Shown here: piece by piece, positions 6,078-60,791 of the stretch
Layout: every line of letters begins with the position of its first letter
Position numbering within the stretch: the stretch's first letter is position 1
Source: a virus
DNA: 64,000 bases
Virus record (IMG/VR): IMGVR_UViG_3300013314_000001
Span: 1 to 64,000 of that record
Strand: one strand, 5' to 3'
Position numbers and translations under genes: made by a program
The notes under the pieces: model-generated
Seen by the model: only the letters and a program-made list of their open reading frames with translations
Database searches by the model: none
Told to the model about the DNA's origin: nothing

Positions 6078-6454
6078 TGGTTTTGTGGTGGGGTGTATAC
6101 TGTGAACTCCGAATCTTTGAAAGCTTTCATAGCCTGTTGTCGCTGTTGTTCAAGTGCTTCTTGGTGCATTTGCATCTGAGTTTTACCATTAGCCTGAGAC
6201 TTCTTAGGCAAGGCTTGTTGAAATGCAGTGAAATTCTGGTAATAAACCTCCCAACGGTTCTGCCCCGCTTTGTTCTTGGAAGCTAACCAAGCCTCAATGT
6301 CATTCACTGGTTGGCTTAAATTTCTTGTCTTCTCCTCACAGAAATTTAAAAAATTCTCGCTCTCCGTTTCTGAGAGAGTCTTTTTAAATTCTGAATAAGT
6401 CTGAATAGCCTGAGAACTATTTGATATTGTGTACTTGTTTGTGACAATTATCAC
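6074..6454 (-). CDS. paralogue of the C-terminal domain of ORF 41243..42016
   Basis: SETESENFLNFCEEKTRNLSQPVNDIEAWLASKNKAGQNRWEVYY...MQMHQEALEQQRQQAM aligns with SEAESENFLTFCEEKTRNLNQPVNDIEAWLAHTTKAGQKRWEVYY...WQMHQEELEQQRQRAM. The DNA similarity is also visible. Confidence 0.65.
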   Translation of the reverse strand: MIIVTNKYTISNSSQAIQTYSEFKKTLSETESENFLNFCEEKTRNLSQPVNDIEAWLASKNKAGQNRWEVYYQNFTAFQQALPKKSQANGKTQMQMHQEALEQQRQQAMKAFKDSEFTVYTPPQNQ

Positions 6455-17750: not shown

Positions 17751-17777
17751 TTCTTCAGCTATCTTAGTACTGACACT

Positions 17778-17834: not shown

Positions 17835-17848
17835 TCGTTATATGCTGA
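17835..17848. promoter_or_regulatory. operator-like site O2 (inverted copy)
   Basis: TCGTTATATGCTG is the exact reverse complement of the O1 core, 41 nt away. Confidence 0.6.
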
Positions 17849-17850
17849 AG

Positions 17851-17967
17851 AAAGGCAGAGGGCAGAGGGCAGAGGGCAGAAGGGAAGAGGTTATATAAGA
17901 CCTTAAGACTTCTGACACTATATTAAATCCATCCTTCTGCCTTCTGCCTTCTGCCCTCTGCCTTTCC
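17851..17967 (-). mobile_element. miniature hairpin element: inverted heptamer arrays (GGCAGAG/GGCAGAA)n without an ORF
   Basis: The left arm 17851-17890 and right arm 17933-17967 are reverse complements. The 42-nt loop contains GACACTATAT, matching (in reverse complement) ATATAGTGT next to the left arm of cassette 42966..43439. Confidence 0.65.
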
Positions 17968-17971
17968 TACT

Positions 17972-18415
17972 ATGACCCGTAGCACACATCAGAAAAAATT
18001 ATATTCAATGGAAGAGATTTTTGGCGAGAAGCCGAGCGAGTTCTTTTTTACGATCACGCCTACGTCTCAGAAAAAGTTATTACAGGCTGCAAAAAAATTA
18101 GAGATTACAGAATCCTTTTTAGTCGAGGCGATAATAAGAGTTGGTGCTGGAGCAGCGATCGAATACTACTTAGAAAAAGGTTTTAACACTAAAGAGAACA
18201 AAAGGTTTAAATCACTTAATCGTCATGGAGAGAACAAGAGTAAGCGACATAAATCTTTATCCCTCACTAACTATGCACACGAGGCATTGAGCAAGTACGC
18301 ATCATTACTCAATGAATCACGTTCCGAAGTATTAGAATGTGCTATTCGTTCAAAGACCGCAATAATTGAAGCTACAGAGTTTGTTAAATTCTTGATTCAA
18401 CAGCAGTTAACTTGA
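17972..18415 (+). CDS. tandem ribbon-helix-helix DNA-binding regulator
   Basis: Two RHH-like units: FFFTITPTSQKKLLQAAKKLEITESFLVEAIIRVG and KSLSLTNYAHEALSKYASLLNESRSEVLECAIRSK. It lies next to the operator-like sites. Confidence 0.5.
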   Translation: MTRSTHQKKLYSMEEIFGEKPSEFFFTITPTSQKKLLQAAKKLEITESFLVEAIIRVGAGAAIEYYLEKGFNTKENKRFKSLNRHGENKSKRHKSLSLTNYAHEALSKYASLLNESRSEVLECAIRSKTAIIEATEFVKFLIQQQLT

Positions 18416-21585: not shown

Positions 21586-21950
21586 ATGCAATGTTTGGTG
21601 AGAGTGAATTTGATTCTAGCAATTCAGAGATTAAATCCCCGGTAATCGAACCAGTAGTGATAAAGGTCTTTGACATTATTGGGGAGAATGGAATATTTAT
21701 AAAGGATGGACAGCAGCTTTACTCAGTAGCTAAAACAGTTTTGGAAATTGATGGTGAAGTTGTACTTGATTTTGATGGTGTACTTCACGTAGACACTGCT
21801 TTCTTTAGCTATTCAGTTGGACACTTGATTAAAGATTACGGTCGCAATCAAATTAAGATAACTGGGCTTTCCCCACTTCAGCAACAGTTGGTAGAAAAAG
21901 TTATCCAGAACGCTGAGACTTACTATCAAAAGCAGGAACATCAACAGTAG
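21579..21950 (+). CDS. STAS-like DUF4325-type protein
   Basis: IKDGQQLYSVAKTVLEIDGEVVLDFDGVLHVDTAFFSYSVGHLIKDYG matches the DUF4325 pattern (..v.lDF.gv..vts.Fl....g.l). Confidence 0.5.
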   Translation: MLNAMFGESEFDSSNSEIKSPVIEPVVIKVFDIIGENGIFIKDGQQLYSVAKTVLEIDGEVVLDFDGVLHVDTAFFSYSVGHLIKDYGRNQIKITGLSPLQQQLVEKVIQNAETYYQKQEHQQ

Positions 21951-23178
21951 TCCAGCCCACATTCTTGTTAATGACTTTTTTCTCTAAACTTTTGATATGT
22001 GTAAAAGCAATATGGTGTAAGTTATGCCAATGCTCTAAATTCCCTAGCAGATTACGCAATGGGCTTTTAGAATTTAATGCTACCCACCTATGCAATTCTT
22101 CCTTGTGCGCCACCCATAATTTCTTGAGCAATGGCTTGTAGTACTTTTCCTCCCAAGGTATAATCCAGTTCCAGCACTCAGCTTTTTTGTCATATTCAAT
22201 CAAGACACGAAACGCACTAATAGCTGGGAAAAGGGTACTACGTGGGGCGTGAATACCTGGAACAATATATTCTGGGTTGCAGTGCATTACTTCAAATTCA
22301 CTACCAGTTTTAACTGTGGGTATACCTGATAGTAAATTATCTCTATCATCTCTAACTATCAGCCAGAATAAATATTCAAGATAACCAATGTCCTCAATCA
22401 AGTTTCCTATTAGCTGTGCATTCTCCAGCATAGAATCGTAGTAGCCGCTAAGATTGCTTATGTAAGTAATTGGGAATCTACCTGACCCAGAGTTAAGCCA
22501 ATAGAAACGGGGGGCTATCATACCAGCAACTTGCAGAACATGGTCAACACTGCAACGTGGATCGAGAGAGGTATCTGCTTGATTTTGATGATAAGCTACC
22601 TTCCAAGTTCCTGGTATATAAGTTTTTAACGTGTCAAATTTCCCCTCAGAATCGTAACGAGTTTTTTTGTCATGCCGATAAACTATCTGCCGATGTGAAG
22701 CAATGCGTCTATCATCCTTTGTGGGCTGTGCCAGCTTGATTGTCAATGGCACTCGCACTAAACTTAGGTCAACACCTTTCAAGGAAAAGTCATGTAGTGC
22801 CAGCATAGTATGCCTACCATCGGCGTGACCCTGCTGAATTTCGTTTTTACAGGTTCCAGGATTAAATATTAGAGTTACGGCTTTTATGCCGTCCTCTAAC
22901 TCTTCTACATGGTTAATATTGGCATAAAGGTATACACCCATATTTAACTCATGAAAGCGTTCTGGTTCATCTATTAAGCTTTGAACTATCATCTTGTAGA
23001 CAGTTTGCTTAGTGTTTGCTTTCCGTGGGTTAGGTGCATCAGGAATGTGCTGCTCATGCGGAAAGTACTTACCCAGTGCTAAACATCTAATCTCGGTGTG
23101 AGTTTCCCAATCACTAGGAAAATTGACTACTTGAAATGTTACTGTAGGTGCTAGGGTATTAGTTGGTAGTATTTTCAT
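21901..23178 (-). CDS. AIPR/DGQHR (ParB-fold)-like protein, candidate abortive-infection / exclusion gene
   Basis: 425 aa. NPRKANTKQTVYKMIVQSLIDEPERFHELNMGVYLYAN...IQQGHADGRHTMLAL parallels the AIPR pattern N.R....vn..I..tL..eP..F...NNGiti...i.NG.QT. It converges on and overlaps ORF 21579..21950 by 50 nt. Confidence 0.4.
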   Translation of the reverse strand: MKILPTNTLAPTVTFQVVNFPSDWETHTEIRCLALGKYFPHEQHIPDAPNPRKANTKQTVYKMIVQSLIDEPERFHELNMGVYLYANINHVEELEDGIKAVTLIFNPGTCKNEIQQGHADGRHTMLALHDFSLKGVDLSLVRVPLTIKLAQPTKDDRRIASHRQIVYRHDKKTRYDSEGKFDTLKTYIPGTWKVAYHQNQADTSLDPRCSVDHVLQVAGMIAPRFYWLNSGSGRFPITYISNLSGYYDSMLENAQLIGNLIEDIGYLEYLFWLIVRDDRDNLLSGIPTVKTGSEFEVMHCNPEYIVPGIHAPRSTLFPAISAFRVLIEYDKKAECWNWIIPWEEKYYKPLLKKLWVAHKEELHRWVALNSKSPLRNLLGNLEHWHNLHHIAFTHIKSLEKKVINKNVGWTTVDVPAFDSKSQRSG

Positions 23179-30359: not shown

Positions 30360-30379
30360 GTATCAGCATATAACGATAC
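30360..30379. promoter_or_regulatory. operator-like site O3 (GTATCAGCATATAACGATAC)
   Basis: Third copy of the O1 core, in the 145-nt intergenic region upstream of ORF 29442..30287. Flanked by the hairpins GAGGAAATTAATATTTCCTC and AGCTTCAGGGGGCTGAAGCT. Confidence 0.6.
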
Positions 30380-30422
30380 CTTGGAAAAAGCAAGAGGAAA
30401 TATTAATTTCCTCAAAGTTATT

Positions 30423-41242: not shown

Positions 41243-42016
41243 ATGAACGTTAAATCTAATGCTAGTCTAGCAACAAATCAAGCTGAACACAAGCCACGAT
41301 TTTTTAAGATGACTGCTGAAAGAGCTAAAGCTGATTACAAGGAAAAACTTATTACCACCGAAGCATACATACTTTACTTACTAGATGCTCATCGGTCTAT
41401 CGGTTGGAAGTGGAAAGTTGAGCCTAAAGAATTCTGTAAAACCTGGGACATCCCCCGTAGCACATTCTATAAAGCAATATCAAAACTAAAAACTAAGGGC
41501 AAGCTCAACTGGGAACTTGAAGGCACAATAACTTTGTGGAGAGGTTCGGACATTGGGATGCAAGACAGTCTCATTGATGAGCCATCTAGTCCAACTCATG
41601 AGACTAATAGTCTCGTTGATGAGACTAATAGTCTCGTTGATGAGACTGTAGTCTCACTCACGCGCAAGCAGGGTACTCAAACCCTTACGCAGCAAGAGGT
41701 TGAAAACCCAATAGATATTAAACAGACTTATACAGATTTTATAAACTCTCTCTCAGAAGCGGAGAGCGAGAATTTTTTAACTTTCTGTGAGGAAAAAACA
41801 AGAAATTTAAACCAGCCAGTAAACGACATTGAGGCATGGTTAGCGCACACCACTAAAGCTGGACAGAAACGCTGGGAAGTTTATTACAATAAGTACAAAG
41901 CTTCTCAGCAGAGCAAACCTAAGAAGTCTCAGGCTAATGTTAAAACTCAATGGCAAATGCACCAAGAAGAACTTGAACAGCAACGCCAACGGGCTATGGC
42001 ACACCTAGAACTCTAG
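41243..42016 (+). CDS. winged-helix DNA-binding protein, candidate lambda-O-like replication initiator
   Basis: wHTH FCKTWDIPRSTFYKAISKLKTKGKL. The central coding region carries three 21-bp-spaced palindromes. The C-terminal domain is paralogous to ORF 6074..6454. Confidence 0.45.
   Translation: MNVKSNASLATNQAEHKPRFFKMTAERAKADYKEKLITTEAYILYLLDAHRSIGWKWKVEPKEFCKTWDIPRSTFYKAISKLKTKGKLNWELEGTITLWRGSDIGMQDSLIDEPSSPTHETNSLVDETNSLVDETVVSLTRKQGTQTLTQQEVENPIDIKQTYTDFINSLSEAESENFLTFCEEKTRNLNQPVNDIEAWLAHTTKAGQKRWEVYYNKYKASQQSKPKKSQANVKTQWQMHQEELEQQRQRAMAHLEL
41600..41655. repeat. three tandem palindromic iterons GAGACT-N2-3-AGTCTC with 21-bp period (ori-like)
   Basis: Copies at 41600-41614, 41621-41635 and 41642-41655. 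An AT-rich tract follows at about 41710-41746. Confidence 0.7.
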
Positions 42017-42925
42017 CAAGTCAACAGCTTTCAGCTTGGCATAGTCACCACGCCGATCATATTTTTGAGTCACATTTGCTGACGCATGGCCAGCTAATTT
42101 TTGAATGCTGCTGATATCCGCCCCAGCGTCAAACAAATCACTAATGAAGGTACGCCGAAAATCATGCGCTGTAAAATCCTGGGCAATGCCAGCAAGCAGC
42201 GCAAGTCTACGAACAATAATAGGCACGGCTTGGTCAGTTAACCGTTGAGTAAAGATGATGTTATCCCCCCGTGAAATAGCCATGAACAGAGGGGAGATAG
42301 GGGGAATGGCATTAAGCCAGGGAACAAGAACATCGACCCGTGATTTGGGGATAAATACCACCCTTGCTTTATTTCCTTTCCCTTTACGGATAGTTACGCT
42401 TCGTTCTGGGATGCTAATGTCACTCACGTTCAACGCAACTATCTCCGAACGCCTTAACCCAATCCGCAGCATAACCAGCATCGCGCTGTCTCTCAACCCT
42501 GCATTTGATGTATCATTAATACAAACTGAGAATAAACCTTTAACCTCGTCTTCACTCAAAGCCCTACCTTTGGGTGGGGATTCCCCTTTTACTTGCTTTA
42601 AATCTGTGGCGCGATCGCAATCGTCAACACTCATTAGTCCCAGGCGCTTGCACTCAATCAAAGTTTTCTTGAGAGCGGCCAGCATTTTATTAGCTGTGGC
42701 TGGTGCATATTTCTCAGCCAGGAGCGAACGCACAGCTTGAGTATGTTGGTAGCGTAAATCTTGCCAAGGAAAGCTAACTAAGGTTGCACCTTCCATAATC
42801 ATGCTGGCAATCATGTTAAGGGATTGCGTCATTGTGAGCCGACTACCTGGGGCAAGAGAGGCTAAGTAGATTATTGCAGGGCTTTGAATTAGTAGTTGAG
42901 ACTTCCCTTCTTTAAGGGTTAGCAT
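42005..42925 (-). CDS. int: tyrosine recombinase / phage integrase (XerC/D-like)
   Basis: GLRRSEIVAL (Arg I), HDFRRTFISDL (H-x-x-R) and LAGHASANVTQKYDRRG (catalytic Tyr region). Confidence 0.85.
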   Translation of the reverse strand: MLTLKEGKSQLLIQSPAIIYLASLAPGSRLTMTQSLNMIASMIMEGATLVSFPWQDLRYQHTQAVRSLLAEKYAPATANKMLAALKKTLIECKRLGLMSVDDCDRATDLKQVKGESPPKGRALSEDEVKGLFSVCINDTSNAGLRDSAMLVMLRIGLRRSEIVALNVSDISIPERSVTIRKGKGNKARVVFIPKSRVDVLVPWLNAIPPISPLFMAISRGDNIIFTQRLTDQAVPIIVRRLALLAGIAQDFTAHDFRRTFISDLFDAGADISSIQKLAGHASANVTQKYDRRGDYAKLKAVDLLEF

Positions 42926-42965
42926 AGCGGTTGTAGTTTTAGATATGGTTCCTAGTATGTCAGAA

Positions 42966-43439
42966 AAAGGCAGAAGGTAGAAGGCAGAAGGCAGAAGGTA
43001 AGAGGATTAGATATGATATAGTGTAAATACTTCAAACTTTTAGCCTTCAAACTTATGAGTTATAAGACTCAGTTCATTTGGAAAAGAGCAGTTCAGTTAT
43101 CAGTTAACTGCTATAAATTTACTGAAGACTTTCCTAAAACAGAAGCATACGGATTAGTTAGTCAAATTAGACGCGCATCTGTTTCTGTACCTAGCAACAT
43201 AGCTGAAGGATATGGACGAAAAACAACAGGTGAATATGTTCATTTTTTGCATATATCACTTGGTTCTTTGCGTGAACTAGATACACAATTAATAATTGCA
43301 AGAGAAGTTGGTTTAAAAAACAGGAATCTCTTTGAACAAATTTTGAATGAAGTAGAAGAAATGCAAAGCATATTAGTCTCTTCACTTAATAAAATTAAAT
43401 CCTAACCTTCTGCCCTCTGCCTTCCCCCTTCTGCCTTCT
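42966..43439 (+). mobile_element. hairpin-bounded cassette: inverted heptamer arrays flanking a four-helix-bundle gene
   Basis: The left arm 42966-43005 (GGCAGAAGG repeats) is the reverse complement of the right arm 43406-43439 (CCTTCTGCC repeats). A miniature ORF-less copy lies at 17851..17967. Confidence 0.6.
43055..43405 (+). CDS. four-helix-bundle protein (23S rRNA intervening-sequence protein / Avd-like family)
   Basis: WKRAVQLSVNCYKFTEDFPKTEAYGLVSQIRRASVSVPSNIAEGYGRKT..EYVHFLHISLGSLRELDTQL is the signature of this family. Confidence 0.8.
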   Translation: MSYKTQFIWKRAVQLSVNCYKFTEDFPKTEAYGLVSQIRRASVSVPSNIAEGYGRKTTGEYVHFLHISLGSLRELDTQLIIAREVGLKNRNLFEQILNEVEEMQSILVSSLNKIKS

Positions 43440-43549
43440 TTAGCGTTGGGAAGACCCCTTCTCAATGGTGACTTTTCAGAAGTTAAGTAATACTACTGAA
43501 CTAGGTGCGAGAAAGATAACGCACGATAGTAATTACTTGAAATATTCTG

Positions 43550-44497
43550 ATGCTAGCCATTAAGGAAAATTTTAAACTAATCAATGGACTAGGGGTTGCA
43601 ATTGTCTCTCGCAACCTAGAATTAATTCAGCAAATTATACAGGATTTAGGCTCAAGAAACAAGGGAGAAATTCAACGCCTTTGGATAAGTATTGAGTCTG
43701 ACTTATCTGAGGAGGATATTAAGTGGTTCTACGTAACAGTCAAAGAACTTTTCTCGACTGAATTAGAAGAATTACCTCCATTATCTCCTCAAGAAAACCA
43801 CATTAAAGCTGAGATTGAAAACCGACTCTCATTATTTTTGGCATCTTTTCTTGAGAGAGGAACAGACTTATCGGTTCTGAGAAGCGACAAATTATATCGT
43901 GAAGACTATCCTACCTGGGGAAGTTACTGCCGTTTTGCTCTTGGAATTCACCCTGCCTACGCTGACAGATTGATCCGGGCTGCTGATATTGTTAAGGATT
44001 TGAAGCCAATTGGCGTGAATAGTATTCTCCCTGGCAATGAACTTATTGTCAGAGAACTCAGCAGAATTGAGCCTGAGCTACGGCAAGTTGTATGGGAACA
44101 GGTGGTTAGGTCTGGGGATAAAATCACAGCTGACAACGTGCGTCGGGTTCATGATACCTACGAAGTTGTCAAACCCATTGAATTAATTGTTGGGGATTTT
44201 AAACCAGGACAAATAGTAGCAATCAATTCACCCGATACAAAACTATCTATTGGAAGAGTCATAAGTATTACTCCCAATAAAAGATATAAGATTAAATCTG
44301 GTATTGAAATATTTACTTTTGTCCCAAAAAGTATTGAGGCATTAGATTTTAGTCAGTATATATTTAGCAGAATTGAAAAGCTAACTACATCTGATAAATT
44401 GCAAGTTCAATTAATAGGTCAATCATTCTTTTACTGCAAAGTAATTGAAGATTGGCAAATTAAACTACTATCTTTTTTAGAGGAAATATGTCTTTAG
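43550..44497 (+). CDS. hypothetical DNA-binding protein (ParB/KorB-like HTH segment)
   Basis: LRSDKLYREDYPTWGSYCRFALGIHPAYADRLIRAADIVKDL resembles the HTH module of ParB-like phage proteins. The assignment is weak. Confidence 0.35.
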   Translation: MLAIKENFKLINGLGVAIVSRNLELIQQIIQDLGSRNKGEIQRLWISIESDLSEEDIKWFYVTVKELFSTELEELPPLSPQENHIKAEIENRLSLFLASFLERGTDLSVLRSDKLYREDYPTWGSYCRFALGIHPAYADRLIRAADIVKDLKPIGVNSILPGNELIVRELSRIEPELRQVVWEQVVRSGDKITADNVRRVHDTYEVVKPIELIVGDFKPGQIVAINSPDTKLSIGRVISITPNKRYKIKSGIEIFTFVPKSIEALDFSQYIFSRIEKLTTSDKLQVQLIGQSFFYCKVIEDWQIKLLSFLEEICL

Positions 44498-45138
44498 AAT
44501 TGTTTATTGCTTACGCTAATACTAGAGATATTCCTACTCGTAATATGCTAGTCAAGCTTAATCTAAACCTTGCACGAAAGGTAGCGCACTCTATAAAAAA
44601 GTTTTGTGCTGAACCCTATGAAGACTTAGAACAAGAGGCGGCGATTGGATTAGTAAGAAGTGTAGAGCATTTCGATCCACATCGCGGATTAAAGTTTAGT
44701 AGCTTTGCAGTGCCATATATTCATGGCAAACTCTTGCAGTATCTCAGGGACAAAGGGCATTCAATTAGGCTTACTCAAGCTATGCAAACCCTTAATAACA
44801 AAGGGAAAAAAGCAGCAGCATTGTTATCTCAAAAGCTAGGACGTACAGCGACACTCTCAGAGGTGGCAGCACATCTTGGATGTTGTGCTGATGAGTATAG
44901 AGCAGCAGTTCAGGCAAATATCATCTCTTCTAACTGTGAGCCTATTAATTTAGACTCAGAAGAAGTAATGAGAATTGAGAGTAATAACCAGTACATTTAT
45001 TACGCCCCTGAGATTAAGATTAATTGGGATTCTTTGACTCAGAGTGAACTAGGAACGCTAGAAAACAAAAGCGGTGAACGCCGGAGACTATGGCACAGCC
45101 TAGCGAAAATGAATGCCCCCTATAATAACGACGGCTAG
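44488..45138 (+). CDS. sigma-70 family RNA polymerase sigma factor
   Basis: Region 2: EDLEQEAAIGLVRSVEHFDPHRGLKFSSFAVPYIHGKLLQYLRD. Has a region 3/4-like HTH TLSEVAAHLGCCADEY. Confidence 0.8.
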   Translation: MSLELFIAYANTRDIPTRNMLVKLNLNLARKVAHSIKKFCAEPYEDLEQEAAIGLVRSVEHFDPHRGLKFSSFAVPYIHGKLLQYLRDKGHSIRLTQAMQTLNNKGKKAAALLSQKLGRTATLSEVAAHLGCCADEYRAAVQANIISSNCEPINLDSEEVMRIESNNQYIYYAPEIKINWDSLTQSELGTLENKSGERRRLWHSLAKMNAPYNNDG

Positions 45139-50584: not shown

Positions 50585-51142
50585 ATGGGAAGTGTAACAT
50601 TAACTGGAATTTCTACACCATTTAGCACATCATATGGTACGTCTCAAAAACCTATTAATCAAATGACTGATGAAGAGTTTGCAGCTTATGCATCAGGGCA
50701 ACAGACAAATCAAAATAGAACTAATCAATTAAATACTATTGCTGGAAGTGGTGTTAGTGCTGTTCAATTGCAAGCTCAACAACAAGCTAAAGACTTAGCA
50801 CAGACTCAACTAGATAATTCTGACAAACAAATGGCTCTCTCAAGTAAGTATCGGTCAGCAGAGTCAGAACAGAATAATCAAATAACTCAACAGCAAAACA
50901 CACAAAAATATGGTATTCAAACTGGGTTAAATACTCAAGAAAATACGCAGCAAACTGCTATGCAGAATAATCAAAATACACAGCAAACTGCTATGCAGAA
51001 TAATCAGAATACACAGCAAACTAATATGTTTAATCTTCAAAATCAAGCCAAGCAACAAGATACTCAAAGCGCTCGTAATGCTGCTAGTAGTTTATATTTT
51101 GGTCGAGCTAGGAATGGTAGTGGATTCCAAGGGCGGGGTTAA
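50585..51142 (+). CDS. Q/N-rich protein with tandem 11-aa repeat
   Basis: NTQQTAMQNNQ x2.5, encoded by the 33-bp tandem repeat. Confidence 0.5.
   Translation: MGSVTLTGISTPFSTSYGTSQKPINQMTDEEFAAYASGQQTNQNRTNQLNTIAGSGVSAVQLQAQQQAKDLAQTQLDNSDKQMALSSKYRSAESEQNNQITQQQNTQKYGIQTGLNTQENTQQTAMQNNQNTQQTAMQNNQNTQQTNMFNLQNQAKQQDTQSARNAASSLYFGRARNGSGFQGRG
50942..51028 (+). repeat. 33-bp tandem repeat, about 2.6 copies
   Basis: AATACGCAGCAAACTGCTATGCAGAATAATCAA (50942-50974), a near-identical copy at 50975-51007 and a partial copy at 51008-51028. Confidence 0.85.
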
Positions 51143-52043: not shown

Positions 52044-53549
52044 GTGGGGAGAGCCAGCCGCAGTAGAAGAGATGCCCATCGGACTAAGGCTAGAGAGTTA
52101 GCACGGGCAGCAGGGATTAATAAACCTTCTGCTGAATCTCTTAGGGCGCGGCATGATTTTAGCTTTTTCTGTTACTGGATTACAAGAAATTCTTCTGAAC
52201 CAGCAACACCAGCAGAACACCATAAAGAATGGCATAAACACTGGGTTACTGAGCAAGATAGTAAATACTTGCTTCGTATTGCAGGGGACAATGTAGATTT
52301 GCTGGCACCACGAGGTTCAGGAAAATCTACATCGCTGGGTTTATTTGTGGCATGGGCGATTGGCTACCATACCATGCACAAAAAATTATTGCAGATATTG
52401 TACATATCCTACTCATTATCTGCGGCTCGCGGTAAATCAAAAACCATCAGAAGCATTATCGAATCTCCCGAATATGCTGAGATATTTCCGATGGTTGCGC
52501 CTGGACTTGAATGGTCAAACGATAACTGGAGCATAGACTTTAAACTTGCTGGCATTAAATCAACTGGTGCTGAAAGATTCACGATGATATGCGCTGGTGC
52601 AGCAGGAAGTATTACGTCAAAACGTGCGATGCTAATTATCCTGGATGATATTATCAAAAGCGCTGAACAAATAGCCAATCCAAGTGTTAGAGAAAAGATT
52701 GAGCGTAACTTTGTTAGTGTTATCCGTCCAACACTATTAGAAGGCGGAAGGATAATAGGACTAGGCACAAGGTTCAGACCAGATGATATTCACGTTACTA
52801 GATTTAATTCTAAAAAAGGCTGGATACAAATAGAACAGCAAGCAATCCTTGTTGATGAGTATGGAATTGAGCGTTCATACTGGGAAAGTTTCTGGTCATT
52901 AGCATATTTAAAACAGTTACAAAAAGATGATCCTTTATCTTTCAGCTACCAATTTCAAAACAAAATTGTACCACTTGATGAGATGGGTTTACATCCATCT
53001 TGGATACACTTTGAAGATATTCCAGAATCATTTGATTGCTACGCTGTGGGGATTGACTTAGCATCATCACTAAAACAAAAAGCCGATTTCACAGTTATGA
53101 CTTTAATCGGCAAGCTTAATGATAAATATTATGTGCTTGACTATCGGCGTGGTAAATGGAATGGGAACTTAGAAAAGTGTCAGCAGTTAGTTGAGCTATA
53201 CGAAGAATGGATAGAGCCAGGTATACCATTCACTGTGTTCTGCGAAGATACAAGTTACCAAAGTTCATTCCAAGGTGACTTCACAAACTATGTTGTTAAT
53301 GACTTAAAAATTTATGATATGCAGTGCAGGGGAGCAAGAATGAAAGGAGACAAATTAGCTCACTTGTTAAGTATCTCAGGCATCTTTGCCAATGGTGCAG
53401 TTGCCTACAATAGATTCAGATTTCATATAGAAGATGACATGATAAAAGAGCTTACACAATTTGGTGCAATGCCTCACGATGATGCGCTTGATAGCCTTGT
53501 ACTTGCTTTACAAGGATTAGGCTCTAGACGAAAGTTGCTTGCAGTGTGA
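52044..53549 (+). CDS. terL: terminase large subunit
   Basis: Walker A LLAPRGSGKST, Walker B MLIILDD, and nuclease-domain acidic motifs VGIDLA and PHDDALDSL. Confidence 0.9.
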   Translation: MGRASRSRRDAHRTKARELARAAGINKPSAESLRARHDFSFFCYWITRNSSEPATPAEHHKEWHKHWVTEQDSKYLLRIAGDNVDLLAPRGSGKSTSLGLFVAWAIGYHTMHKKLLQILYISYSLSAARGKSKTIRSIIESPEYAEIFPMVAPGLEWSNDNWSIDFKLAGIKSTGAERFTMICAGAAGSITSKRAMLIILDDIIKSAEQIANPSVREKIERNFVSVIRPTLLEGGRIIGLGTRFRPDDIHVTRFNSKKGWIQIEQQAILVDEYGIERSYWESFWSLAYLKQLQKDDPLSFSYQFQNKIVPLDEMGLHPSWIHFEDIPESFDCYAVGIDLASSLKQKADFTVMTLIGKLNDKYYVLDYRRGKWNGNLEKCQQLVELYEEWIEPGIPFTVFCEDTSYQSSFQGDFTNYVVNDLKIYDMQCRGARMKGDKLAHLLSISGIFANGAVAYNRFRFHIEDDMIKELTQFGAMPHDDALDSLVLALQGLGSRRKLLAV

Positions 53550-58670: not shown

Positions 58671-60791
58671 ATGGCTCATGGCATCCTCGACCAAATAATT
58701 GAATCAATACTTGACCCTACGAGTAAGGGGATGTCAGGCAATACACTAATTGTTGCAAATCATTTGCAGCAAATGAAATTATTCTCACTAAGAGGCGGGG
58801 TTGAAATTCTTCCTACACAAGACGATGATTATGATTCGAGGAAGAAGTTCATTGACAACATCTGGAAACAAAATCAGCTTGACCTTTACTTAGATAAAAT
58901 CTGGGACTTCACATTACTCAAAGGTCAAATTCTTTTATACCTCAGACCAACTAAAGATGGAACATATAAAATATATTTCTATCCCAAAGACAGCTTCCGT
59001 GCCTACTATAACAGCGACGGTGATTTGGCTGAGGTGGTCATCCGATACAACTTTAAAGTACGTGGACAATTTGACAACGCTCAGAACTTGCACTGGATTA
59101 AACTCAGAATCACCTCAGAAACAGTAGAGCAAACCGAGACTGACCAGCAGCCTAGTTTTGATGGCGAGTATCTAACTAGCATGAATGCAAAAACCTATAC
59201 CAACACACTCAAGTTTATACCTTGTGTAGTAGTTAGAAATGCACCAACTGGACCAGGTGAAGATGGGGTGTGCGAGTTTGAACATTTGCGATCGCAGATT
59301 GAGACCCATGACAAATTGATGGGTGCTATCAATGCAAACTTAGCATTCTTTGGTAATCCCTCACTGGTAACTACTCGTTCTCCAACAGAGATTATGGAGG
59401 CGATAGAGGATGACACACCAGCACTTAATAAAAGTCGTACTCTTTCAAGCGCTGGCGGCTGGTATGGGGATACTACAAATAGCAGTCGCAAACAAGACCC
59501 CTTTGCTTATCGTGCAGGACAAGAAGGCATTAGGGTTAAGCGTGTAGTCGGTAACGTGTCGAATGATGAGCGATTTGGTTACATTGCACCTGACCCTATA
59601 TCACCTGACCATACCCAACACGTTAGGGAAATGCGAGAAGCAATTCACTTTGCACTAGGGGGAATTGATGAACGGGGGATGACGGCAACCGCTACAGCTT
59701 ACGAGATGAAAAGTATCTACGGTCGAGTTGCTGCAACTGCTATTAAAAAGTGCAGGGCTATTTACGATCATGGACTATGTAAGTTATTTGAAATGGCGTT
59801 AGCTGCTGAAGAAGATTTATTCAAGCAATCTCTAGCAGTTGCACTTAAGAAAACTCCTGAAGAAATGACAGAGGGTTTTATTCAAGACTTAACAAACAAA
59901 GGAAAGATTCCACCTAATGTATTTGGACTACCACCAATAGGTAATCGTCAAATCAAATGGCGTTGGACTGGGCCAGTGTTTGAACCCAGCCCAACAGACA
60001 TGAGAGATAAGACAATTGCAGCTCGTAACTATCAAGAACTTGGTGTGCGATCGCTCGAAAGTCTCAAGACTATTTTTGATAATAAAACTGATAAAGAATT
60101 AGAAGGAATGCTAAAAGGTGGATATCCTTTTAGATACATGAGTAGCGTTGGTAATACGACTTCTCAGTTCTTAGGATTATATCAACAAATGCTTAACTTA
60201 CCTAATGGACAAGGACAGTCATTAGCCCAAACAGTACAGATGCCTCCACTAATTAGTAGAAGTATTGATACCCTTTATAAGGAACTAAACTATGACCCAA
60301 GATTCGACGCAGTACAACCAGGGGACATCCCCGACTATCGAGTCGGCGCAAGCTCCTACAGTAATTTCCTTTCCCCAGGTGGCGGCGCAATACCAGGGGC
60401 AGCAGGTAGCACAACCCCAGCAGGGACAAGTAGTACAATTCCCGGTATATCAAACGCCCCAAGTCCTCTCGCAGCCTCCGGTATCCTCCCCTTCCCAGTC
60501 CAAACCTTCGGAGGACAACCCATGGAAACAGGCGTTCGAGTCGGTAACATCCTTCCTGAGTACGCCGCTGACCTCCCCATATCAGGGTCAACAGTCACAA
60601 TCCCAAACACGCCAATTGCCGGGGGCTTACAACCCAACCAATCCATACTCAGCAGCCAATTACCGCCAGGGTCAGCAATCCCCCCAGACCTCGCAGTCGG
60701 CGCAGAACAACCAGGCTCAATCTGGAGTCAGCTATTCCCCACAGTCGCAGCAGCAACAAGTAAGCTACGCAAACATACCTCAAAGAAGTAG
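58671..60791 (+). CDS. portal protein (putative) with P/G/S-rich C-terminal extension
   Basis: 706-aa ORF in the canonical position between terminase and the scaffold/capsid genes. No exact motif recognised. The last ~165 codons overlap ORF 60292..61242. Confidence 0.55.
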   Translation: MAHGILDQIIESILDPTSKGMSGNTLIVANHLQQMKLFSLRGGVEILPTQDDDYDSRKKFIDNIWKQNQLDLYLDKIWDFTLLKGQILLYLRPTKDGTYKIYFYPKDSFRAYYNSDGDLAEVVIRYNFKVRGQFDNAQNLHWIKLRITSETVEQTETDQQPSFDGEYLTSMNAKTYTNTLKFIPCVVVRNAPTGPGEDGVCEFEHLRSQIETHDKLMGAINANLAFFGNPSLVTTRSPTEIMEAIEDDTPALNKSRTLSSAGGWYGDTTNSSRKQDPFAYRAGQEGIRVKRVVGNVSNDERFGYIAPDPISPDHTQHVREMREAIHFALGGIDERGMTATATAYEMKSIYGRVAATAIKKCRAIYDHGLCKLFEMALAAEEDLFKQSLAVALKKTPEEMTEGFIQDLTNKGKIPPNVFGLPPIGNRQIKWRWTGPVFEPSPTDMRDKTIAARNYQELGVRSLESLKTIFDNKTDKELEGMLKGGYPFRYMSSVGNTTSQFLGLYQQMLNLPNGQGQSLAQTVQMPPLISRSIDTLYKELNYDPRFDAVQPGDIPDYRVGASSYSNFLSPGGGAIPGAAGSTTPAGTSSTIPGISNAPSPLAASGILPFPVQTFGGQPMETGVRVGNILPEYAADLPISGSTVTIPNTPIAGGLQPNQSILSSQLPPGSAIPPDLAVGAEQPGSIWSQLFPTVAAATSKLRKHTSKK

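Follow-up and report, generated by a model that had tools for sequence, protein, structure and literature searches.

A four-helix-bundle gene bracketed by inverted heptamer arrays in a phage-like genome, its gene-less miniature, and its counterparts across bacteria

What kind of element is formed by a small gene that stands between two inverted heptamer arrays in a cyanophage-like genome, and whose arrays recur in the same genome as a hairpin devoid of the gene? The question is raised by a 64,000-nt stretch of viral DNA (IMG/VR record IMGVR_UViG_3300013314_000001, positions 1 to 64,000; hereafter the window, to the whole of which all positions refer), in which the gene of a 116-aa four-helix-bundle (4HB) protein (43055..43405, + strand) lies within inverted arrays of the unit GGCAGAR, and in which a 117-bp hairpin of GGCAGAR arrays without a gene (17850-17966; hereafter the mini) stands in front of a ribbon-helix-helix (RHH)-like gene. 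The window is phage-like, with genes for a large terminase (52044-53549), a portal or virion protein (58671-60791) and a helicase, and the full unit is flanked by a tyrosine integrase gene (42005-42925, - strand), which starts approximately 40 nt from its left arm, and by a sigma-70-type gene (44488-45138). We regard it as somewhat better than an even bet, with a probability of roughly 0.55, that the segment 42964-43440 is a hairpin-insulated 4HB cassette resembling the intervening sequences (IVSs) of 23S rRNA, spread by recombination or by hitch-hiking on insertion sequences (ISs).

The arrays were called with Tandem Repeats Finder. Those of the full unit are located at 42967-42998 (left; period 7, 4.6 copies, 92% matches) and 43406-43439 (right; period 7, 4.9 copies, 77% matches), and those of the mini at 17854-17890 (left; period 7, 5.1 copies) and 17933-17964 (right; period 7, 4.6 copies). 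In the full unit, the G-rich left arm (42964..43002, + strand), consisting of about five units of GGCAGAA/GGTAGAA, and the C-rich right arm (43402..43440, + strand), consisting of about five units of CCTTCTG/CCCTCTG, each span 39 nt, are 87% complementary and leave 399 nt between them; the right arm begins at the stop codon of the 4HB gene and forms the right junction of the acquired unit. The mini is composed of a G-rich left arm (17850..17890, + strand) reading (GGCAGAG)3 GGCAGAA GGGAAGA, a 42-nt loop (17891..17932, + strand), and a C-rich right arm (17933..17966, + strand) that stops 5 nt before the ATG of the RHH-like gene at 17972; its core arms (17861-17890 and 17933-17962) enclose the 42 nt, and extended pairing gives 48-nt arms (17850-17897 and 17919-17966). 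When one mismatch was allowed, GGCAGARGGCAGAR matched ten times in the window, always inside the four arms (0.07 matches expected; none of 100 shuffles reached ten), and no GGCAGAR-type array was found elsewhere in the 64 kb. The mini, folded as RNA, gave a stem of 34 bp without interruption (-77.4 kcal/mol, z = -11.5), and the full unit (-139.8 kcal/mol, z = -5.8) had arms of 39-46 nt paired in its minimum free energy structure. In these computed folds the geometry of the arms, with duplexes of at least 34 bp and -63 to -77 kcal/mol, is like that of RNase III substrates. The inverted arrays around the 4HB gene and the copy lacking an open reading frame (ORF) at ~17.85 kb, both claimed in an earlier reading of the bare sequence (hereafter the original prediction), were thus borne out by repeat calling, stem scores and shuffling.

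The 4HB ORF matched the profiles PF05635 (E = 5e-36, 123.5 bits against a cut-off of 33.8), TIGR02436 (E = 4e-37, 126.8 bits; cut-off 24) and NF008911 (167.8 bits; cut-off 137), which confirmed its proposed membership of the 23S rRNA IVS protein family; PF05635 is indeed named after these intervening sequences. The nearest solved structure was that of XCC0516 (PDB ID: 2GSC, E = 8e-22), an entry of five chains with one sequence, for which a homopentameric state has been reported (PMC4990558; Lin et al., 2006, cited in PMC10053308). The Pfam and NCBIfam profiles identified no transposase, nuclease or recombinase domain in the 116-aa protein, the 4HB domain alone being matched, and no family in PHROGs or PADLOC matched the gene. 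Its ratio of nonsynonymous to synonymous substitution (dN/dS) was 0.05-0.10 at dS >1 (0.06-0.08 in comparison with the closest homologs), and the array unit was unchanged across that divergence; the gene is under strong purifying selection. One search returned 5860 relatives of the protein, which are typically encoded by stand-alone genes of 116 aa, and cyanobacterial genomes carry many paralogs each, while tblastn against 50,697 GenBank phage records gave no match at E <= 1e-8.

Between the left arm and the gene lies a cassette-internal 5' module (43014..43054, + strand) comprising a -10-like box, TGATATAGT (43014-43022), a leader of pyrimidine-rich heptamers, TACTTCAAACTT (43028-43039), and CCTTCAAACTT (43044-43054), which ends at the ATG. 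The same succession of TATAAT, 5-8 nt, ACTTCAAACTT, 7-10 nt, CTTCAAACTT and ATG is conserved in the copies of Nostocales, Crocosphaera and Microcoleaceae and also precedes an ISL3 transposase; the module may therefore function as a promoter. In the cyanobacterial copies the leader is itself a degenerate array, with the orientation of the 3' arm.

In order to compare the two sites with their counterparts, we used one related phage (62 kb, of which ~33 kb was sampled as loci L087 and L090) and two further loci, L088 and L089, which span the cassette site only. Three relatives of the ORF315 protein, encoded downstream of the cassette, were found in a protein-database search; a search of viral contigs with the two proteins flanking the cassette yielded no relatives, and no plasmid or GenBank phage was matched when the 8-kb region was queried by megablast. 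At the cassette site L087-L089 carry a 130-aa gene, which in L087 follows the integrase, then another small gene, and after it ORF315 and the sigma gene. Colinearity between the window and L087 extends across a promoter-like backbone site (42896..42925, + strand; TTGAGA-18-TAGCAT, a consensus match only), which is conserved in the cassette-free L087, up to ATGTCAGAA at the start of the first small gene, and identity ends where the left array begins. A remnant start of the replaced phage gene forms the left junction (42957..42980, + strand): it reads ATG TCA GAA ..., runs into the left array and meets a TAG inside the array, and the ATG of L087 that matches position 42957 starts the 130-aa gene. 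Homology with L087, L088 and L089 returns at ~43441, right after the right array and at the stop codon of the second small gene, and continues through a terminator-like hairpin with a T-run, likewise of the phage backbone (43444..43477, + strand), the hairpin of which is conserved in all three loci. In other words, the cassette and both arms replaced ~600 bp, comprising the two small genes, in a promoter-terminator slot.

The mini site could be treated similarly, for the sole relative of the RHH-like protein is encoded on the 62-kb related phage and the intergenic sequences to either side can be aligned. In place of the window's 117-bp hairpin, L090 carries a leader of 17 nt, GATTTAAAGGAAGTGAC, before the ATG, which is conserved as the start codon corresponding to position 17972. 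No GGCAGRR array was present in the ~33 kb sampled from the related phage. Since the two genomes cease to differ at the outer arm ends, both units appear to be discrete, lineage-specific gains in this phage lineage, and the full one (42964-43440) was probably acquired horizontally as one discrete gene cassette with its own -10-like box and leader. Target-site duplications were looked for at the junctions of both units against L087-L090, and none was found. The resident sequence at both left junctions is heptamer-like (TCAGAAG and AAAGGAAG), and thus hints that microhomology-assisted recombination may have been involved. The ORF positions and the conserved ATG accordingly agree with the placement originally given for the full copy, between the integrase gene and the sigma-factor operon, and for the mini, whose end lies 5 nt short of the RHH start codon; and the proposal that the unit is or was mobile is supported by the filled versus alternative or empty sites seen for both copies, with breakpoints at the outer arm ends.

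Directly to the left of the mini lies an operator-like inverted pair, CAGCATATAACGA / TCGTTATATGCTG (17756-17768 and 17836-17848), a third copy of which is found at 30363-30397, and L090 has two ATCATTATATAATGAT palindromes at the corresponding position. The mini hence sits between the operator-like pair and the RHH start codon, and a Shine-Dalgarno-like AAGGAAG was removed by the insertion.

The two window copies have in common the heptamer unit, an irregular last unit (GGTAAGA in the full copy, GGGAAGA in the mini), and ~20 nt of non-array sequence beside one arm (local alignment of the mini loop with the interior of the full copy: P ~0.03 by shuffling for the right half, left half not significant), the orientation of which is ambiguous because the element is quasi-palindromic. 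The 9-mer ATATAGTGT (43016-43024, + strand; 17915-17923, - strand), on which the original prediction had relied to link the copies in opposite orientation, has three copies in the window (0.6 expected), a number reached by 2 of 100 shuffles; being near chance, it was dropped as a sign of common descent. The mini loop is weakly, although suggestively, like the 5' module (TTATATAAG ... ACTTCTGAC) and the arm-side sequence of the full copy, its left part resembling the -10-like box and the first leader unit in a weak alignment; the mini could plausibly have arisen through a deletion with its endpoints in the leader array and the 3' array, which are direct repeats.

In sharing inverted termini, and in their presence/absence polymorphism with breakpoints at the element ends (seen with one comparator in the case of the mini), the long and short copies resemble an autonomous element and its miniature inverted-repeat transposable element (MITE). 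Unlike such a pair, however, the long copy encodes no transposase but a protein consisting of the 4HB domain only, neither unit has a target-site duplication, resident DNA was replaced, and the termini are degenerate tandem arrays. The autonomous-versus-MITE relationship suggested at the outset was therefore abandoned.

To determine how widely 4HB genes are bracketed in this manner, we collected 80 genome loci with relatives of the protein and scored 78 homolog loci by the best ungapped stem between the 150 nt upstream and the 150 nt downstream of the gene, taking as threshold the 99th percentile of the scores at 389 control positions chosen within those loci. This score superseded duplexfold (ViennaRNA) of 110-nt flanks in sense, antisense and control configurations, which long interior loops made too noisy. 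Significant inverted flanking arms were detected in 53 of the 78 loci (among L009-L080 and the window), nearly all of them with both arms at period 7 (most) or 8; the 4HB cassettes come from at least 11 bacterial phyla. In an independent sample of viral-contig loci, 11 of 14 exceeded the same threshold, ten with period-7/8 arms and one (L159) marginally so at period 12. The density of period-7/8 arrays was 2.0/kb within 150 nt of 4HB genes and 0.21/kb more than 400 nt away, an approximately 10-fold difference (87 sources, being 86 loci and the window). Gene-less inverted pairs with the same unit were also found near cassettes in several phyla (L026, L037, L056 and L065). We found no paper in the open-access literature that links 7-8-nt arrays with 4HB genes, and the wider pattern, in which 4HB genes are bracketed by inverted 7-8-mer arrays across phyla, appears undescribed.

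The arms of one cassette match each other, and the unit varies by lineage even at one conserved site; it is, for example, GGCAGAR in Nostocales, GGCAGGR in Crocosphaera and Phormidiaceae, AGGCAAT or TAGTAAT in Flavobacteriia, GGCACTA or AGGTCGT in Planctomycetota, TAGGGTG in Acidobacteriota, and an octamer, CAAGGRTT or GGCACAAA, in Thermodesulfobacteriota and Nitrospirota, with an AGGCA core recurring among the units. The G-rich arm was the 5' arm in all 53 significant cassettes and was purine-rich in 52; as an inverted repeat reads alike on both strands, this G-first polarity is a property of the element and not of gene orientation. Identity between the proteins was higher within unit classes than between them (0.55 vs 0.46; 0 of 2000 permutations as extreme), a difference confounded by taxonomy. 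Arrays were about 4-5 units long, the median being 4.4 in a distribution clipped by the detection threshold. The idea that array length peaks at five units, as a pentamer might require, was consequently set aside, since the clipped distribution is uninformative on this point. Stops in all three frames were present in 37% of the G-rich arms of the significant cassettes (9% of shuffled and 5% of C-rich arms), for one stop per unit cycles through the frames when the unit length is not a multiple of three; such stops are absent from GGCAGAA-type arms, and were hence rejected as a general reason for the 7-8-nt period.

The Bacteroidota cassettes are found at conserved positions within operons, with no gene of a mobile element close by. 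An sdh-like site carries arms of the AGGCAAT, TAGTAAT and ACAAGTAA types, and in one Flavobacteriales case the arm type tracks the protein type, not the site. The packing in Flavobacterium is tight: the upstream stop codon falls in the first unit, and the downstream ATG lies ~5 nt past the right arm, which is also the spacing that separates the mini of the window from its ATG. Two Bacteroidota sites are shared across genera or orders, one directly upstream of a gene starting MSAAKNINI (L021, L023, L024, L029, L031, L038, L048, L068 and L070) and another represented by L047, L052, L058, L062, L064, L071, L075 and L080, which suggests either that the cassettes have resided there for long or that they have been replaced repeatedly at one site.

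The closest homologs of the window protein (84-85% identical; L081-L086) lie in prophage or phage regulatory regions of Nostoc sp. DSM 114161 and of metagenomes, downstream of a cro/cI-like helix-turn-helix (HTH) gene, either directly (L084 and L086) or with a 114-aa ORF between (L081-L083). The gene that follows 4HB and the right array encodes a GIY-YIG/DUF723 protein in L081 and L084 and an IS605 TnpB (OrfB) in L086, and in L084 and L086 heptamer arrays flank the HTH gene as well as the 4HB ORF. A vehicle was found in Nostoc, namely an ISL3-family element with the order inverted repeat (IR), array, leader, transposase, leader, 4HB, array, IR (L001, L002, L004, L005, L006 and L007), in which the same TATAAT-plus-ACTTCAAACTT leader precedes both the transposase and the 4HB gene; a 460-bp derivative lacking the transposase (L012) has the order IR, array, 4HB, array, IR. 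GGCAGAR arrays also occur in Nostoc chromosomes, the ISL3 element, prophages and viral contigs. The viral contigs contained 55 stretches with at least three perfect units, most of them solitary, and among paired arrays 12 were gene-less (gaps of 11-166 nt), one surrounded a non-4HB ORF and one a 4HB gene. The loops of three of the gene-less hairpins from viral contigs (L104, L115 and L138) hold another small repeat, which is GGGAGTAAGGGTTTAAGACCCCCAC-like and suggests that very small mobile repeats are nested by insertion in these hairpins.

Among known systems, the anatomy of the full unit is most readily compared with the ORF-bearing IVSs of 23S rRNA in Leptospira and Coxiella burnetii, which span ~430-760 nt and have terminal inverted repeats, with a stem of 28 bp in Coxiella that RNase III cuts in the middle (PMC4990558). 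These IVSs are considered selfish and horizontally transferred, and a connection between the ORF and mobility has been suggested since 1993 (PMC4990558). Like them, the window cassette has terminal inverted repeats, a long stem, and a PF05635 (S23p-family) ORF in the loop. Short ORF-less IVSs exist in other bacteria and offer a parallel to the mini. Unlike an IVS, the window cassette lies between phage protein-coding genes and not in rRNA, and its arms are tandem arrays of 7 nt; motifs marking 23S or 16S rRNA were found in none of the first 90 loci fetched (the 80 genome loci and L081-L090). Moreover, the Coxiella ORF has been reported to be decaying, in contrast to the strong purifying selection on the window-type gene. 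The element is thus an IVS-type, hairpin-bounded S23p cassette outside rRNA, with arms of tandem heptamers, in a phage.

From the tight intergenic packing described above, pairing of the arms is suggested to loop the cassette out of read-through transcripts. In the mechanism that we favour, the arms of any transcript crossing both would pair into a duplex of at least 34 bp, whereby the cassette would be looped out and the flanking RNA drawn together; the duplex would be a substrate of RNase III, so that the cassette would be tolerated in very tight intergenic spaces. In the window, read-through transcription into the cassette would be driven by the promoter-like site at 42896..42925. The cassette would spread by recombination at arrays or array-like sequences, or by IS hitch-hiking, and not through transposition catalysed by the 4HB protein. 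The anatomy of the unit, the association across phyla, the gain in the phage lineage and the purifying selection are observed; pairing of the arms at the RNA level and the mode of movement are inferred from them, and processing by RNase III is predicted from the computed duplexes.

Several observations weigh against this reading. Mismatches between arms show no strand-specific G:U signature (59 G:U vs 55 A:C), and transversions account for about half of them (100 of 214), so that the arms look like degenerate arrays and not like strictly compensating helices. Pairing is more stable on the sense strand for the mini (-77.4 vs -70.3 kcal/mol) but on the antisense strand for the arms of the full copy (-69.7 vs -62.7 kcal/mol); together with the lack of a G:U signature, this opposite preference leaves a function at the RNA level putative, and a DNA-level hairpin or protein-binding arrays fit the data equally well. 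RNAalifold on seven orthologous Flavobacterium cassettes gave one compensatory pair, the arms being too conserved. In cyanobacteria the -10-like box lies inside the left arm, and consequently the gene's own mRNA would lack the 5' arm. The closest homologs carry direct C-rich arrays on both sides of the ORF, and their inverted G-rich partner lies farther upstream, either immediately 5' of the HTH gene (L084 and L086) or ~1 kb upstream within a KilA-N ORF (L081). For the mini there is one comparator, and a precise loss in L090 could take the place of a gain in the window. Finally, pairing alone explains neither the 7-8-nt period, nor the G-first polarity in 53 of 53 cassettes, nor the AGGCA core, which suggests that something reads the array units themselves.

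The reader might be the 4HB protein. According to this explanation, which we consider possible although unlikely, the pentameric protein binds the tandem 7-8-nt units in DNA or RNA, either regulating its own or neighbouring genes through the arrays, as in an operator or an array of the type bound by the trp RNA-binding attenuation protein (TRAP), or maintaining and spreading them, and its targets elsewhere are the gene-less hairpins, the mini among them. The REP-associated tyrosine transposases (RAYTs) were connected with repetitive extragenic palindromes (REPs) and their paired form, REPIN, by the presence of inverted copies of the dispersed repeat on either side of the gene. The 4HB gene has the same layout at 53 of 78 genomic and 11 of 14 viral loci, in that it stands between inverted copies of a repeat which is found in other places as hairpins without a gene, with gene-less pairs of the same unit near cassettes in several phyla. 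Unlike a RAYT, which is an HUH/Y1 transposase, the 4HB protein is a 116-aa bundle without a catalytic motif and with many paralogs per cyanobacterial genome; and unlike REPs, which are single palindromes, the repeats that flank it are tandem arrays.

Tandem heptanucleotide arrays dispersed in the intergenic DNA of cyanobacteria are known as short tandemly repeated repetitive (STRR) sequences, and the GGCAGAR arrays are of this type; the definition is said to go back to Mazel and colleagues in 1990, who reportedly based it on heptanucleotide arrays in (heterocystous) cyanobacteria, and GGCAGAR is, to our knowledge, not among the classical STRR units. Like the STRR sequences, the GGGAATC arrays of Xanthomonas and the arrays of Geobacter, the window arrays consist of ~4-5 tandem units of 7-8 nt and are intergenic, and such arrays often form convergent inverted pairs capable of folding into stem-loops, of which 70-75 have been counted in Xanthomonas (PMC4692102) and 24 plus 21 in Geobacter (PMC2700814). 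Arrays of these kinds lie near start codons and inside operons, and the papers on Nostoc and Geobacter postulated an unidentified protein that binds them; pairs of four octamers or five heptamers in Geobacter metallireducens, many of which enclose IS110 or IS481 transposases, were termed 'global regulator binding sites' (Aklujkar et al., 2009). The Xanthomonas and Geobacter papers, however, draw no link to 4HB (S23p) genes: PMC4692102 contains none of the terms S23, 'four helix' and 'intervening', and PMC2700814 neither S23 nor four-helix. Nevertheless, a GGGAATC array of four units overlaps the start of the gene for XCC0516, the homolog of known structure, which is listed beside repeat number 15 (supplement of Rehm et al., 2015).

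In favour of binding by the 4HB protein are also the period, polarity and core in excess of what pairing needs, the conservation of the unit at dS >1, the one case in which arm type follows protein type, the taxonomy-confounded identity within unit classes, and the coincidence of a pentameric homolog (2GSC) with arrays of ~4-5 units. On the other side, the binding itself is conjectural and the clipped distribution of unit numbers is silent on it; the arrays far outnumber the 4HB genes and many are solitary; the protein has no recognisable nuclease or recombinase domain; and a correlation between unit and protein would equally follow if arms and gene travelled together. In its widest form, the proposal would make TIGR02436 4HB proteins the partners of bacterial heptamer and octamer arrays in general (STRR-type, Xanthomonas GGGAATC and Geobacter sites), a pentamer reading ~five units in at least 11 phyla and in phages, with the 23S IVS as a special case, which we put forward as a speculation with the odds clearly against it.

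Still less probable, in our view, is that the arms are DNA-level ends or landing pads for recombinases acting in trans, with the 4HB gene as a frequent cargo. Such a role would fit the Nostoc arrays directly inside the terminal inverted repeats of the 4HB-carrying ISL3 element, the IS110 or IS481 transposases often enclosed by paired 4-unit octamer arrays in G. metallireducens, the TnpB/IS605 OrfB after the right array in L086 and the GIY-YIG/DUF723 genes in L081 and L084, the tyrosine integrase ~40 nt from the left arm in the window, and the absence of strand bias in arm mismatches. The window cassette, however, has neither ISL3 inverted repeats nor a target-site duplication, the integrase is conserved in the cassette-free L087, the Bacteroidota cassettes have no mobile-element gene near their conserved operon sites, and a gene under strong purifying selection is not incidental junk.

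That the arrays are STRR-class repeats generated by slippage, their association with 4HB genes and their hairpin geometry being incidental, is improbable to a greater degree and already largely refuted. Solitary (GGCAGAR)n arrays are indeed common, only one of the pairs in the viral contigs having a 4HB gene against the 12 gene-less pairs and 55 stretches, and several kinds of heptamer array have been reported in Nostoc and Xanthomonas. Slippage, however, cannot produce a matching inverted partner, and the incidental view leaves aside the 10-fold enrichment by 4HB genes and the significance of 53 of 78 loci, in lineages not known for heptamer repeats, as well as the invariable G-first order of the arms (53 of 53), the arrival of both arms with the gene in this phage lineage, and the lack of other such arrays in the window. 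The original prediction had itself raised the prospect of ordinary host-type heptamers without any 4HB association and without empty or filled sites: the arrays are ordinary cyanobacterial heptamers of host type, mostly solitary in viral contigs, but the association spans phyla and both kinds of site were found.

That the gene is the Avd remnant of a diversity-generating retroelement (DGR) that has lost its reverse transcriptase (RT) and its template/variable repeat (TR/VR) pair is scarcely credible. PF05635 is the Pfam family nearest Avd and the two proteins have distantly related four-helix-bundle folds forming pentamers, but the Avd equivalog model DivGenRetAVD matched weakly (E = 0.0026; 18.1 bits against a cut-off of 80, compared with 127 bits for TIGR02436), no RT domain was found among the sixteen window ORFs scanned with Pfam or in the Pfam listings for the neighbours of the closest homologs, no TR/VR-like direct repeat of at least 30 nt lies near the gene, and the 5860 relatives are typical stand-alone 116-aa genes. 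Accordingly, the statement that the locus is not a complete DGR stands, and of the kinship with Avd the family membership holds and the close relation does not.

Two old puzzles may be one, namely the role of the large S23p/IVS protein family, described in 1993, and the purpose of heptamer arrays in cyanobacteria, Xanthomonas and Geobacter, for the two are physically linked in a consistent architecture. As regards phage biology, a host-type selfish or regulatory cassette entered a phage genome twice, once replacing two genes and once rebuilding the leader of a regulator gene. Even if the arms are only insulating hairpins, an annotation rule follows, in that inverted 7-8-mer arrays mark the borders of 4HB cassettes.

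Several other features of the window were recorded. No Rfam family, rRNA included, and no tRNA was found in the window, and a PADLOC search was also empty. A palindromic TAGGCGTTAGCCT recurs intergenically at no fewer than 13 sites (e.g. 11905, 14750, 16417, 17741, 23732, 24683, 27943, 30424, 38383, 41141 and 57294) and is also present in the related phage (L090, ~5652); the motif is a putative promoter or operator specific to the phage and might serve the sigma factor encoded at 44488-45138. What looks like a second family of regulatory motifs is a 57-nt repeat ending in CAGCGCGAAGCGTTTAAAGAAAAATATT, with six copies (38269, 38708, 55471, 56061, 56635 and 57052). An AIPR-family (abortive-infection-like) protein is encoded at 21901-23178 (- strand), and the same family is present at the corresponding position of L090. 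A 276-nt inverted duplication (6128-6403 and 41723-41998; 82% complementary) overlaps the 3' part of the integrase-adjoining ORF 41243-42016, in which a 21-nt coding tandem repeat (41567-41656, 4.3 copies) specifies the motif ETNSLVD, and a 33-nt tandem repeat (2.5 copies) is located at 50940-51022.

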